From: Isurus oxyrinchus
Lineage: Eukaryota
Reading direction: 5' to 3'
Assembly (NCBI GenBank): GCA_026770705.1
Contig: JANJGN010000016.1
Span: 10,788,001 to 10,852,000, forward strand
Length of the DNA: 64,000 bases
In this document: positions 30,003-43,239 of the stretch, in pieces
How positions within the stretch are numbered: position 1 is the first letter of the stretch
Layout of the letters: each line of letters opens with the position of its first letter
Notes under the pieces: model-generated
What the model saw: the letters and a program-made list of their open reading frames with translations, nothing else
What the model was told of the DNA's origin: nothing
The model's database searches: none
Program-made: the position numbers and the translations under genes

Positions 30003-30392
30003 AGGGGAGGCAGTGGCAAAGCGGTGTGATGACCATTGTCGATTGTTGTAAAAACCCATCTGCTCACTAATGTCCTTTCGGGAAGGAAATCTGCCATCCT
30101 TACCTGGTCTGGCCTACACGTGACTCCAGACCCACAGCAACGCGGTTGACTCTTAAATGCCCTCTGAAATGGCCCAGCAAGCCACTCAGTTTCACCACCA
30201 GCTTCTTAAGGGCAATTAGGGATGGGCAAAAAATGTTGGTCAACAGTGACCACACTTCAAAAAGTATTTCATTGGCTGTAAAGCACTTTGAGACATCCAG
30301 TGATCACGAAAAGTGCTATATAAATGCAAGTCTTTCTTTACTTTCTCCTCTAGGAGTGGGGCTAGCGATGCCCACATCCAATTAATAATAAA
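30003..30392 (+). mobile_element. tRNA-SINE carrying a 118-bp inverted insert
   Basis: ggaaggaaatctgccatccttacctggtctggcctacacgtgactccagacc...; tail interrupted at 30241-30358. Confidence 0.85.
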
Positions 30393-30790
30393 GAGATATA
30401 AAAGAACCTACAGACCTGCTATGGGACTTCATCATCCACATTTCTTATAGTCTGATCATAGGGAGCTGGGCCCTTGACATGGACCTGCAGCTTAAAAGGA
30501 TAGTGGGTGCATGGTAGTATTATAACCTCAAAATCACACACCTTCCCAACTTGAGCATATATCACCCATTCTTTCATCCTTACTGGGTTCAAATTCTGGG
30601 ACTGCCTGTCATGGTGGGATTTGAACTGCTGTTGCCAGAGTATTAGCTCGAGACTCTGAATGATTAGTTCAGTGACAATACAAATGTTCCACCATCTCCC
30701 TAAACTATCCAAGACCATAGACCATGAGTGTTTCAGTGATACTCAATTGCAGCGGGCACCACAGGTGGGCCTGATCCAATCTTAACCTCA

Positions 30791-30997
30791 AAGAAAACTG
30801 CGGATGCTGGAAATCCAAAACAAAAACAGAATTACCTGGAAAAACTCAGCAGGTCTGGCAGCATCGGCGGAGAAGAAAAGAGTTGACGTTTCGAGTCCTT
30901 CTGTCGAAGGGTCATGAGGACTCGAAATGTCAACTCTTTTCTTCTCCGCCGATGCTGCCAGACCTGCTGAGTTTTTCCAGGTAATTCTGTTTTTGTT
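30791..30997. mobile_element. Short palindromic Penelope-derived insertion
   Basis: Inverted arms around a 17-bp spacer (30900-30916); perfect 16-bp TSD tccaatcttaacctca at 30775-30790 and 30998-31013; hammerhead motif at 30899-30935 on plus. Confidence 0.95.
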
Positions 30998-31049
30998 TCC
31001 AATCTTAACCTCACTTGGCTTCCAAACCAGTGCCTCACTCCTAGAGGAG

Positions 31050-31310
31050 AAAGTAAAGAAAGACTTGCATTTATATAGCACTTTTCGTGATCACTGGATG
31101 TCTCAAAGTGCTTTACAGCCAATGAAATACTTTTTGAAGTGTGGTCACTGTTGTAATGTAGGAAACACAGTACCTAATTTGCACACAGCAAGCTCCCACA
31201 GACAACAATGTGATAATGATCAGATAATCTGTTTCTTTTGTGATGTTGATTGAGAGACAAATGTAGGCCTGAACTCCGGGGAAAACTCCCCTGCCCTTCT
31301 TGGGGTATTT
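31050..31310 (-). mobile_element. Deu-SINE 3' half
   Basis: aaagacttgcatttatatagcac...ctttacagccaatgaaatactttttgaagtgtggtcactgttgtaatgtaggaaa. Confidence 0.85.
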
Positions 31311-36595: not shown

Positions 36596-37844
36596 GAGAT
36601 GTCTTCCATGCTATCATGTTTTCTTGCAGTTCAACTCAACCATCTGTTTGGCTGTTTCAAAGCTTTGACAGATGGCTAAGCTTATTGTTGTCTTCAAAGG
36701 CTTAAATGCATTCAGCTCTTGAAGTTTTGTTGACACAGTCATTCAGTAGAATCTTATTATTAATGCTTGGCTGAGTTCCAAAGCCACTAATGGATTCAGC
36801 TGGGAAGGGGTTGTTAATACAATCATTCAGTGGAACCTCATTATAAATGCTTGGCTGATTTTCAAACCAACTAAAGCATTCTGTGCAGCAGGAGTTTTTT
36901 TATACAGCTGCCAAGGTAATTTTTAAGTGGCTTTTCAGGGATTGTTTGTGTAATTTTACAGATTTATGATTTCCTCAAAGCTTCCCAATGTTATTATAGG
37001 GTTCCTGAAATAATGGATCTGGGTGAATGGGTCTTGAGGAGAATGGGAGGTGAGGGGGTTTGGGAGGATGAGGGGGTTATGGTGGAGTATCGGTAGTGAG
37101 GGGGGGTGAGGGATGTGAAGTAGGTGAGGGGTCAAGTAGGTGGTGATGGGATGAGTAGGTGCTGGGGGTGAAGGGGTAAGAGGATGAGGGTTAGGGTGTG
37201 TCAAACTCAGCTCCAGAACTGGGTCAATGTCCCAGCGAATGGAGGTGGGTCTTTCAAACTGGCCAGCTTGGCAATGGCCTGCCTCTAATTTCACCTGAGG
37301 TCTGCCTTGGGAGGCTGCAAGCCTGGTCCCCACCTTCAGCAGAGGAAAGCAGCATGGGGAGGGCACTGCCTGACAGGAGGCAGGATCATGCCATCAAGAA
37401 ATCCCCAGGCTCCCAATTCTTGCCTCCAAGATGAAAATCCTGCCCAATTTGTCATTTAACGTCCTCTGAAACACTGGCTCAAGAAGAAGGCCCAATATCA
37501 TCATCTTGGGAGAAATTGGGAATAGGCAATAAACGAGGCCTTGCTGGAGTATCCTACATCTCAAGAGCAAATCATCATTGCCATCTAAATGCCATGCTGT
37601 GTGGTGTTGGTAGCCATAGTCTTCCAAACTTTCTGATCATAGCAACAGTGGGTGACCCTGTTGTTGGAGATCTGGTTAAGCCAGCCTTTAATGTCATCTG
37701 GCTGCCTCCTTCACTGTTGGTCTCTTGGTGACCAGGCATTCCAGCCTTTCTGCTTGTTCTCCTGTCCTCATTCAGTATTTCTCCACTATTTCTTTTCTCT
37801 AGCCAGCGCACTCTTAGGGTCCTTCTTCTGGAAGAGACAAAGCA

Positions 37845-38686
37845 GCTTCAAGGGGATTTGGACAGGCTTCGTGAGTGGGCAAGAACATGGCAGATGGAAC
37901 ATAAAGTGGAAAAATGTGAGATTATCCATTTTGGTAGGAGGAACAGATGTGCAGAGTATTTCTTAAATAGTGAGAGATTAGAAAGTATAGATGTACAGAG
38001 AGACCTGGGAGTCCTTGTCAATCAGTCACTGAAAGCTAGCATATAGGTGCAGCAAGCAATTAGGAAGACTAATGATATGTTAGCCTTCATCGCAAGAGGA
38101 TTTGAGTACAGGAATAGTGAAGTCTTGCTTCAATTGTGTAGAACCTTGGTTAGACAGCACCTGGAGTACTGTGTGCAGTTTGGGAAGGATGTTATTGTTA
38201 TAGAGGGAGTGCAGCAAAAGTTCACCAGGCTTGTTCCCAGGATAGCAGGATTGTCCAATGAAGAGAGATTGGGGAAACTGGGCCAGTATTCTCGAGAGTT
38301 TCAAAGAATGAGAGGTGATCTCATTGAAATCTACAAAATACGTAAAGGGATAGACAGGGTAGGTGCAGGTAAGGCGTTTTGCCTGTTTGGGGAGCCTAGA
38401 AGCAGGGAACACAATTTCCAAATAAGGGGAAAGCCACTTCGGACCGAGATGAGAAAAAAATTGCTTTACTCAAAGGGTTGTGAACCTTTGGAATTCTCTA
38501 CCCCAGAGGGCTGGAGAAGCTCAGTCATTGAGTATGTTCAAAGCAGAGATTGACAGATTTCTAAATACTAATGACATAAAGGGATAGTTTGGGAAAAGGC
38601 ATTGAAGTGGATTGTCAGCCATGATCATGTTGAAATGTGGAGCAGGCTCGATGGGCTGAATGGCCTACTCTTGTTCCTATGTTCTT
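37845..38686 (+). mobile_element. CR1 LINE 3' fragment
   Basis: DRLREWARTWQM...KCEIIHFGR; RQHLEYCVQF; HER1-type tail. Confidence 0.92.
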
Positions 38687-39572
38687 AAGCAGCACATTTG
38701 GAAAGTGCTGATTTTCTTTTCTTCTTCTTTCCCGATGTTCCAAGCTTCACATCCATAATTCATTACTGACCAGATGTAATATTTTAGTATACCGATTCTC
38801 ACTTCAAGACTCAAGCTGCATTTCAATTGAGACAATAAAAAGCTCGCACCCTAAGGAAAATTTCATGCAATGATTCATCAAATATCAGTCAGAAACAGGA
38901 AAACTGCTGCCCTCTTTCCCTCAGCCACTGGCTTGTAGGTGCTAAGACCGAACTGGCAAGCTTGGTACCTGGTGATGACGGGTCTCACACAAGCCTGGGC
39001 ACAAATTAATATCCCCAGGAATACGCAACAGCGACAGCAGCAGCAACAGCTTGCTTTATGTAACACTCTGAAAGTCACATTGAGCCAATAAGGAATTCAG
39101 GAGAAAATAGCCCAACCCTGCAGAAAAAAGTGTGACACCCACCACCAGATAGGGTGGTTGAGGTGAATAGCACAGGTGCATTTAAGATGAACTCGGTAAG
39201 CTAAGGAGAAACAAATAGAAGGGTATACTGATAGGGTTAGATGAAGGGGGTTTATGTGCAGGATAAACAGTAGGATGGGCCACTTGGGGCAAATGGCCTG
39301 TTTCTGTGGTATAGATTTGATTTAAGAAATCTGGGAGGTGGCAGATGCCTTCCTATATAACGTCACATTACAACAGGCAGCACATTCATCCACTACACCT
39401 TTAGGGGAGCCAACATTGGGTATGAAGAATGGATTAAAATATACCATAGATTGCAGGGTATAAGTCGACCTTTGAAGCATTGAAGAACCATATACCGAGC
39501 ATAAAATATGAACCAAAACAGAATTACCTGGAAAAACTCAGCAGGTCTGGCAGCATCGGCGGAGAAGAAAAG

Positions 39573-39611
39573 AGTTGACGTTTCGAGTCCTCATGACCCT
39601 TCGACAGAACT
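39573..39611 (-). ncRNA. Type-I hammerhead motif in Penelope pseudo-LTR
   Basis: Reverse complement of 41546-41584. Confidence 0.75.
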
Positions 39612-40006
39612 TGATTTCGAGTCCAAGAAAGAGTTGAAATATAAGCTGGTTTAAGGTGTGTGTGTGTGGGGGGCGGAGAGATAGAGAGAGAGAGAGGTGG
39701 GGGGTGTGGTTGTGTAGACAAACAAGCAGTGATAGAAGCAGATCATCATAAGATGTCAGCGACAATGGTACAGAAGAACACATAGGTGTTAAAGTTAAAG
39801 TTGGTGATATTATCTAAACGAATGTGCTAATTAAGAATGGATGGTAGGGCACTCAAGGTACAGCTCTAGTGGGGGTGGAGGGAGCATAAAAGATTTTAAA
39901 ATATTTAAAAATAATGGAAATAGGTGGGAAAAGAAAAATCTATATAATTTATTGGGAAAAAAAAAGGGAGGGAAAACAGAAAGGGGGTGGGGATGGGGGA
40001 GGGAGC

Positions 40007-40795
40007 TCACGACCTAAAGTTGTTGAATTCAATATTCAGTCCGGAAGGCTGTAAGGTGCCTAGTCGGAAGATGAGGTGTTGTTCCTCCAGTTTGCGTTGG
40101 GCTTCACTGGAACAATGCAGCAAGCCAAGGACAGACATGTGGGCAAGAGAGCAGGGTGGAGTGTTAAAATGGCAAGCGACAGGGAGGTTTGGGTCATTCT
40201 TGCGGACAGACCGCAGATGTTCTGCAAAGCGGTCGCCCAGTTTACGTTTGGTCTCTCCAATGTAGAGGAAACCACATTGGGAGCAACGAATGCAGTAGAC
40301 TAAGTTGGGGGAAATGCAAGTGAAATGCTGCTTCACTTGAAAGGAGTGTTTGGGCCCTTGGACGGTGAGGAGAGAGGAAGTGAAGGGGCAGGTGTTACAT
40401 CTTTTGCGTGGGCATGGGGTGGTGCCATAGGAGGGGGTTGAGGAGTAGGGGGTGATGGAGGAGTGGACCAGGGTGTCCCGGAGGGAGCAATCCCTACGGA
40501 ATGCCGATAAGGGGGGTGAAGGGAAGATGTGTTTGGTGGTGGCATCATGCTGGAGTTGGCGGAAATGGCGGAGGATGATCCTTTGAATGCGGAGGCTGGT
40601 GGGGTGATAAGTGAGGACAAGGGGGACCCTATCATGTTTCTGGGAGGGAGGAGAAGGCATGAGGGCGGATGCGCGGGAGATGGGCCGGACACGGTTGAGG
40701 GCCCTGTCAACGACCGTGGGTGGAAAACCTCGGTTAAGGAAGAAGGAGGACATGTCAGAGGAACCGTTTTTGAAGGTAGCATCATCGGAACAGAT
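40007..40795 (-). CDS. Penelope ORF C-terminus (RT thumb/linker plus GIY-YIG endonuclease), 5'-truncated and uninterrupted
   Basis: PLVLTYHP, AFRR..SLRDTLV, CPRKRCNTC, FTCISPNLVYCIRCSQCGFLYIGETKRKLGDRFAEH, VACHF, EQHLIFRLGTLQPSGLN. Confidence 0.92.
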   Translation of the reverse strand: MCSDDATFKNGSSDMSSFFLNRGFPPTVVDRALNRVRPISRASALMPSPPSQKHDRVPLVLTYHPTSLRIQRIILRHFRQLQHDATTKHIFPSPPLSAFRRDCSLRDTLVHSSITPYSSTPSYGTTPCPRKRCNTCPFTSSLLTVQGPKHSFQVKQHFTCISPNLVYCIRCSQCGFLYIGETKRKLGDRFAEHLRSVRKNDPNLPVACHFNTPPCSLAHMSVLGLLHCSSEAQRKLEEQHLIFRLGTLQPSGLNIEFNNFRS

Positions 40796-40798
40796 CTG

Positions 40799-41153
40799 CC
40801 AAGGGCCCAAACACTCCTTTCAAGTGAAGCAGCATTTCACTTGCATTTCCCCCAACTTAGTCTACTGCATTCGTTGCTCCCAATGTGGCTTCCTCTACAT
40901 TGGAGAGACTAAACGTAAACTGGGCGACCGCTTTGCAGAACACCTGCGGTCTGTCCGCAAGAATGACCCAAACCTCCCTGTCGCTTGCCATTTTAACACT
41001 CCACCCTGCTCTCTTGCCCACATGTCTGTCCTTGGCTTGCTGCATTGTTCCAGTGAAGCCCAACGCAAACTGGAGGAACAACACCTCATCTTCCGACTAG
41101 GCACTTTACAGCCTTCCGGACTGAATATTGAATTCAACAACTTTAGGTCGTGA
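40799..41153 (+). CDS. Second copy of the Penelope GIY-YIG endonuclease domain, 5'-truncated
   Basis: Same peptide as the minus arm from QGPKHSF to FRS*. Confidence 0.9.
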
Positions 41154-41545
41154 GCTCCCTCCCCCATCCCCACCCCTTTTCTGTTTTCCCCCCCTTTTTT
41201 TTCCCAATAAATTATATAGATTTTTCTTTTCCCACCTATTTCCATTATTTTTAAATATTTTAAAATCTTTTATGCTCCCTCCACCCCCACTAGAGCTGTA
41301 CCTTGAGTGCCCTACCATCCATTCTTAATTAGCACATTCATTTAGATAATATCACCAACTTTAACTTTAACACCTATGTGTTCTATTGTACCATTGTCGC
41401 TGACATCTTTTGATGATCTCCTTCTATCACTGCTTGTTTGTCCACACAACCACACCCCCCACCTCTCTCTCTCTCTATCTCTCCGCCCCCCACACACACA
41501 CCTTAAACCAGCTTATATTTCAACTCTTTCTTGGACTCGAAATCA

Positions 41546-41584
41546 AGTTCTGTCGAAGGGTCATGAGGACTCGAAACGTCAACT
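41546..41584 (+). ncRNA. Type-I hammerhead motif in Penelope pseudo-LTR, predicted cut after 41580
   Basis: agtt-CTGTCGA-agggtc-atgag-gactc-GAAA-cg-TC/aact; stem I extendable by gaaa/tttc. Confidence 0.78.
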
Positions 41585-43239
41585 CTTTTCTTCTCCGCCG
41601 ATGCTGCCAGACCTGCTGAGTTTTTCCAGGTAATTCTGTTTTTGTTTTGGATTTCCAGCATCCGCAGTTTTTTTGTTTTTATAAAATATGAACCCCCTGG
41701 TGTTGGTGTAAGTGGTCGCCATTTTGAAATATGAAAAAATTCTGTTTGCTGGTCACCATGCGCAGTCTGCTATGCGTGGATGTGTCTTAAACTCCTGCAC
41801 ATCTTGGAAACATGGTCTGTATCACTTACTCGACCCCCATGTGCCAAATTACATGTCGAGTATAACTCTGAGCATGTATTTCCGAGCGGAAAAAGTGAGG
41901 CTGACTCCAAATGCGAGTATAGCCCTAAACATATATTTATTAGATGGAAACTTGTGTGTTGAGTGATTGTGGTAAAGTGTGGTACCCTGTCCCTTTAAGA
42001 GAATGCATATACTGATCATGTGACTGCACAGTGGGCAACTGGGAACTGTACATTTAGTCCTGGAAGTTTCTGACTGATCACGTATGATCTGGTGCTCTGC
42101 CTTATGTCTCAATATACCATCAATGTTTATTCTTACATCAGTCTCCCCCCATTATTGATTGCAAGCAGCAATTGAGTTAGAGATCAGTTGGCCAATGAAT
42201 TCATTTACCCAAAACATAAAACTTATGCATTGAGTATAGGCTCAAATATGCATTTTGCCATCCAAAAACAGGGGGCGCCTAATCTGCTGGGTCAAATTAT
42301 ACAACACAATCTATGGTAGCTGAGGTAAATTTAAGATCAAATTAGACCAGTTAGGCAGAATGGCCTGATCCTCAGATGCTAATTCTCTGAATGTTTATGT
42401 GTCCAGACTTGTGTGGGAGGTTAAATTTACAAGTGCATTAAGACCAGGGGTCAATCAGGTAGCCGCATGCATGACAATTCCCGATACTCTAGTTGCCATC
42501 AGCTAGCTCAGCCCAGGCCAGGAACCTCGCTAAAGCAGTTTATTCTAGTCATGGATAATATAAAATCTTGCTGGTAATGTTTATTTGAGGTGACAAAGGG
42601 CTTCAATCCCCTCATGTTTGGGTTAGATTAACACAGATTCAATGCCAAAACATCTGAGGGCAACACCAGTGCTGAATGATATAAATGGATTGTATTCCTG
42701 TTTTAAGGTAGAAAGCATACTAATCTTATCTGATTTACTGCCAGCTACACATCGGCATGATCCTCCCGTTAAGGGACTGCTGAAGTGAAAAATGAAGATT
42801 CTTGGCCAGGCCGTGCTGTGTAAGTTGCTGTGCAACAGTTGTTCAAAGCACCCCTTGGCTGAGGGTACTGAAGATGGAATGGGTTGGAATGCTTCACATG
42901 ATCGAATATCCCACTGGTGCTCTGGGCTCACATAAAAGGAATGGCTGTATGGGCAAGATGGCACCAACGCTTATGCCACCTTACCATACCCCTCAACAAA
43001 GAGTCTGTATCTTTATGAAAGAAAGGTGGGTGGGGCAAGTTATAAAGAAAAGAAAATGAAAAATAAGTGTCTGTGTACAACGTGGAGAGGGAATGCTTAT
43101 TCTTCCAAATAGCATTGTAGGTTAAGGTCAGTTTATTGTTAGTGTGTTTGTGGGTATGTGTTGACTGGGTGGAACGAGAGTGATGTCAGATCACTAAGCC
43201 ATGCTATCAATGAGAAATCATAAACTAATCGCTTGAGGG

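Follow-up and report, generated by a model that had tools for sequence, protein, structure and literature searches.

EN+ Penelope-like elements, in the accounts given by PMC8557442 and PMC3846280, have one open reading frame (ORF) that joins reverse transcriptase (RT) to a C-terminal GIY-YIG domain, and they are arranged in tandem units. An inverted, 5'-truncated copy lies at the 5' end, a target-site duplication is present, and a tail of 30 to 40 nt is often found at one end only; the family analyzed here is the same in each of these features. The anatomy is described in qualitative terms in these papers, which suggest either self-priming or resolution by the endonuclease. The origin of inverted Penelope-like insertions is called undefined in PMC8557442, and self-priming is proposed in PMC3846280. 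As reported in the main text of PMC11167929, a Penelope-like protein cuts and extends both strands in vitro, RT initiates at two neighboring sites on the RNA, which delimit the tail, and the protein is predicted to be a dimer.

Here, we analyzed a 64,000-nt stretch of Isurus oxyrinchus DNA (the window) that contains, at 39515-41680, an insertion of a Penelope-like retrotransposon of the EN+ type. In the 5-Gb genome, we counted 24,109 occurrences of a 43-nt site of this family, which gives at least that many copies. Units of the family stand in tandem and form pseudo-LTRs, and truncated copies in inverted orientation, a tail, and target-site duplication are also present. One copy (L136) retains a single 918-aa ORF in which RVT_1 scored above the cut-off (E = 6.9e-8) and GIY-YIG scored weakly, below the cut-off (E = 8.5e-4). 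Both arms of the window insertion matched Pfam GIY-YIG weakly, the right arm above the cut-off. The endonuclease contains CIRCSQC, with two cysteines between GIY and YIG in a CCHH motif (histidines judged by eye), a feature of EN+ Penelope-like elements (PMC8557442). According to the same source, a CX2-5CxxC linker between RT and endonuclease is present in the clades Neptune and Nematis and missing from Penelope and Poseidon. A CX4CxxC linker is present here (CPRKRCNTC at aa 784), which points to placement with Neptune/Nematis rather than Poseidon, as judged from this motif. Membership in the Penelope/Poseidon clade, for which a linker-free junction of RT and endonuclease is expected, is disfavored on the same ground.

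A search for a hammerhead ribozyme in the pseudo-LTR gave no Rfam match and no significant fold. What we take to be a hammerhead-like core lies at 41550-41580 (plus strand) and 39577-39607 (minus strand); one base in its conserved stretch is unusual. No relative with a solved structure was found. At two loci (L136 and L141), full-length units with open ORFs form near-identical tandem arrays, which are likely very recent. Five others (L149, L192, L210, L221, and L229) are complex, having inverted or switched pieces in their interior that suggest additional template switches.

The window insertion is a single head-to-head insertion composed of two 5'-truncated Penelope-like copies and bounded by a 14-bp target-site duplication. 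Its features are as follows.

39501 to 39514, plus strand: target-site duplication, left copy, 14 bp (ATAAAATATGAACC)
39515 to 40795, minus strand: left arm without tail, an element truncated at its 5' end and covering unit positions 2039 to about 3320
40007 to 40795, minus strand: left-arm ORF remnant (end of RT region, CX4CxxC linker, GIY-YIG endonuclease)
40362 to 40795, minus strand: part of the left arm missing from the right arm
40791 to 40798, no strand: head-to-head junction, CAGATCTG mini-palindrome
40796 to 40798: three extra nucleotides at the junction, completing CAGATCTG
40799 to 41153, plus strand: right-arm ORF remnant, GIY-YIG, unit position 2473 to stop
40889 to 40890, plus strand: first arm difference (40889) and rare Leu-to-Phe allele of both arms (40890, equal to 40270 in the left arm)
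41154 to 41648, plus strand: right-arm 3' untranslated region (UTR)/pseudo-LTR
41649 to 41680, plus strand: tail, right arm only
41681 to 41694, plus strand: target-site duplication, right copy
40271 (left)/40889 (right): arm difference, GGT/GGC
40250 (left)/40910 (right): arm difference, ACC/ACT
40217 (left)/40943 (right): arm difference, CAT/CAC
40055 (left)/41105 (right): arm difference, ACC/ACT

Because copies of the 14-bp duplication stand on both sides, the insertion is one event. A preliminary description of this DNA had reported the three extra junction nucleotides and the mini-palindrome, both of which we confirmed; it had overlooked about 490 nt of shared 3' UTR, the duplication, and the restriction of the tail to the right arm. 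In the arm alignment, the arms overlap by about 850 nt, and the inverted repeat continues through those ~490 nt of 3' UTR, where a further 8 substitutions and 2 small indels separate the arms. At its 5' end, the left arm extends 434 nt beyond the right arm. The duplication, the asymmetry of the arms, and the differences between them argue against an artefact of assembly or of a read folded back on itself. Self-priming has been proposed for rotifer Penelope elements (PMC3846280): one cDNA, or an antisense template, would fold back on itself and be copied to make the second arm. The mini-palindrome would fit such a fold-back; however, a fold-back copy must sit within its template, and here the extra 5' sequence belongs to the left arm and the tail to the right. 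Since each arm has sequence absent from the other, fold-back cannot produce the window insertion.

The arms differ at four positions in 355 nt of shared coding sequence, and all four differences are third-position, silent, and non-CpG, as first described. From this pattern, it had been argued that two different, diverged source elements, both active, supplied the RNAs for the two arms. The chance of about 1% attached to four of four silent changes under neutrality was about right (0.7 to 1.1% under the family mutation spectrum). It becomes 5.5% once account is taken of each of the four being a C/T change, and the pattern was picked out only afterward, in a family where such pairs are very numerous. 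The four silent differences are themselves probably ordinary.

If the arms had separate sources, the alleles of each should mark a distinct subfamily, and no such subfamilies were found among the copies compared. The T alleles at 40910 (right arm; 133 copies) and 40217 (left arm; 240 copies) each make up about 0.5 to 1% of the family, close to the frequency of recurrent C-to-T change, which is 0.56% per arm. A third variant allele, the right arm's state at 40889-40890, is rarer still (61 copies). Thirty of these 61 carriers of the right arm's first two alleles were fetched; none had the right arm's haplotype, and most are old relatives with 70 to 80% identity. Neither arm's haplotype occurred at another locus among the 40 best scored of 1,233 and 639 candidates, where the sole 100% match to each arm was the arm itself. 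The right arm has matches in fifteen other copies over 41060-41185, but these diverge from it elsewhere. Both arms also have the Leu-to-Phe allele, which is missing from their 25 nearest relatives and which about 3% of the family carries, chiefly as old copies; this sharing counts against separate sources but is weak evidence, given that the right arm's two-base state matches that of old relatives and could be a separate event. We infer that at least three of the four silent differences arose by mutation after insertion.

Other features of the window pair weigh against a single source. The T at 41105 is a subfamily allele and common (58 of 163 panel copies), so some doubt stays about the rejection of two sources here. 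Subfamily sites differ between the arms at 3 of 19 positions (5.0 expected for random copies), two linked UTR sites among them; this ratio is the third highest of 42 pairs, and the pair looks young despite it. Other copies are slightly closer to the arms than the arms are to each other (10 to 11 versus 13 differences). The tree of copies is poorly resolved: the arms do not group together, and their common ancestor spans 207 of 216 sequences.

We extended the comparison to the family by fetching 100 longer loci, 75 of them from 43-nt-site matches (14 pairs and 61 other stretches) and 25 from other searches. Many pairs were picked for being pairs, and none for tail state. Across 33 other pairs, non-CpG differences comprised 105 silent and 179 replacing changes versus 93 and 190 expected (dN/dS of 0.84; P = 0.15); dN/dS was 0.9 with CpG included and 0.43 between random loci. 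Arm-versus-arm dN/dS is thus near 1, the outcome named beforehand as evidence against two sources. The shared-source test covered 31 of the 44 other pairs found, those with more than about 130 shared coding nt. In these, rare alleles common to both arms numbered 31 versus 0.9 expected, and subfamily sites differed between arms at 15 of 391 positions versus 135 expected (63 of 1,173 versus 408 for all loci; 68 pairs). Three young pairs (L112, L125, and L134) had zero coding differences between arms. These data suggest that the arms of a pair come from a common source and that most differences between them are postinsertion mutations, with some perhaps from short gene conversion.

A residue nevertheless runs against this reading. 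The 15 subfamily-site differences exceed the at most 3.4 expected from recurrent mutation, an excess that would fit two sources; T-to-C changes are elevated at third positions (9.6 versus about 2.8 per 1,000); and subfamily-site differences rise only weakly with age (rho of 0.20 to 0.34). Gene conversion could account for this residue, as could hotspots or the use, now and then, of a second RNA. Arms of different lineages were seen at three loci, and inverted insertions made from two transcripts are known, though rare, for L1 (PMC11702581). However, L130 lacks a clear duplication and L197 has none in the flanks examined, whereas L126 is one insertion (13-bp duplication) whose arms differ only in a ~300-nt tract of another lineage (unit positions about 2700 to 2983), which could be conversion, a template switch, or a second RNA. 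Weighing haplotypes that were not found elsewhere, shared rare alleles, and the near-neutral dN/dS against these points, we regard two diverged sources for the window insertion as unlikely.

The position of the tail proved far more regular than the allelic differences. We examined 52 inverted insertions (the 100 loci plus the window), of which 46 were scorable at both ends and 6 were unscorable. A ~35-nt tail was present on exactly one arm in 45 of the 46; one pair had two tails, and none had zero. Lone copies occur both with (20) and without (29) the tail, and independent choice by each arm is strongly disfavored (P about 2 × 10−13). A target-site duplication of at least 10 nt (mode, 14) bounds 41 of the 45 one-tail pairs, and among the first 100 matches listed, neighbors within 8 kb were head to head in 14 cases versus tail to tail in 2. 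With compound loci included, the arm with the tail was shorter in 25 of the 45, longer in 16, and equal in 4. Where it is shorter, neither arm can be a copy of the other, and fold-back is contradicted in those 25 unless what is missing comes from a second template.

Junctions between arms varied (1 to 15 nt of overlap in 21 of the 45, blunt in 6, and inserted bases in 18, as placed by BLAST edges), indicating that the window mini-palindrome is one of many end-joining scars. Most junctions are nonpalindromic, against fold-back, although a near-perfect hairpin at L111 and the common source of the arms would suit it. The preliminary description was right to set aside fold-back of one cDNA; the reason is the non-nested arms and not the silent sites. 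We consider fold-back very improbable for this family.

The one-tail rule could also arise if both arms began with the tail (two RNAs of one locus and a symmetric dimer) and endonuclease resolution removed one of them, which would likewise leave exactly one tail. In favor of this, PMC8557442 suggests that the tail results from endonuclease resolution, and the position of the end without a tail shifts within about 10 nt. However, both tail boundaries are RT start sites in the system of PMC11167929. In addition, by a rough and noisy measurement, the tail-less end directly adjoins the duplication, mostly with 0 to 3 nt of microhomology, an arrangement hard to obtain by trimming a primed end. Tail removal is an unlikely explanation in our judgment.

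Elsewhere in the window, positions 37840-38690 hold a decayed fragment that we take to resemble the 3' end of a CR1-type LINE. A miniature head-to-head insertion of the same family lies at 30775-31013 (arms of about 110 and 100 nt; 16-nt duplication). This insertion (30791-30997, 200 nt) has a tail on its left arm only and follows the same one-tail rule. It is surrounded by a SINE-like inverted repeat of 122 nt and 99% identity (30241-30362 and 31032-31153).

The insertion at 39515-41680 is a single one with a 14-bp duplication, overlapping but non-nested arms, and one tail, a pattern repeated across the family. From the sequences, the probable explanation is that both strands of a staggered cut primed RT on RNA from the same source and that the truncated cDNAs were end-joined head to head. 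A staggered cut of about 14 nt would leave two 3' ends, each of which would prime RT on sense RNA of one source element. One strand would begin at an outer start site, giving the arm with the tail, and the other about 35 nt further in, giving the arm without it. The two cDNAs would stop at unrelated points before being joined. We infer double priming, an RNA template for both arms, and end-joining from the anatomy of the insertions. Two priming events had already been suggested from the silent sites; they appear likely on other grounds. The contrast drawn at that time with twin priming was overstated, since the geometry is a variant of twin priming.

Either one RNA read twice or two sister transcripts could serve as template, and the strict one-tail rule favors a dimer on one RNA with two sites. 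The anti-correlated tail would have its simplest explanation in two sites on a single RNA, an arrangement for which strand displacement would be required. We tentatively suggest, as a possibility at somewhat less than even odds, that a protein dimer holds one RNA at two U-rich sites flanking the tail, with one subunit per nicked strand, and that the RNA is copied twice, the outer cDNA displacing the inner one. If true, this dimer rule would account for the tail and the inverted arm together, and also for lone copies, tailed or tail-less, as cases in which one primer stayed unextended; an occasional second RNA would yield pairs of mixed lineage.

The anatomy itself, an inverted copy with a one-sided tail, was already known, and the strict one-tail rule and its mechanism were not found in the literature searched. 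No paper stating such a rule or the paired use of start sites was found among the titles, abstracts, and passages of openly available papers that were searched; Figs. S1 and S2 of PMC11167929 may bear on the pairing of strands. Relative to the qualitative accounts of EN+ Penelope-like elements (PMC8557442; PMC3846280), the rule in this family is near-absolute (45/46), the arms are often non-nested, and they have a common source. Exactly one tail, non-nested arms, and one source are countable constraints that exclude simple fold-back, and they connect the anatomy seen in the genome with the two RT starts and the extension of both strands observed in vitro (PMC11167929), where the prediction is testable in an existing assay. 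The protein of that study, PAc (Poseidon of Anolis carolinensis), corresponds to our proposal in cutting and extending both strands, in its two adjacent, tail-bounding RT starts, and in its predicted dimer. The main text of that paper makes no tie to inverted insertions and no pairing of start site with strand. The PAc start sites lie inside the ORF (PMC11167929), whereas the tail in the family here ends about 30 nt before the ATG, and the CX2-5CxxC linker found here is missing from Poseidon. As L1 twin priming is described in PMC11702581, RT likewise extends both target ends with the duplication preserved, and head-to-head joining of the cDNAs involves microhomology or untemplated bases. In L1, however, the second primer starts beside the end of the first cDNA, and the pieces barely overlap (PMC11702581). 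In contrast, both cDNAs in the family here would start at the RNA's 3' end, about 35 nt apart, and overlaps of hundreds to thousands of nucleotides are routine.
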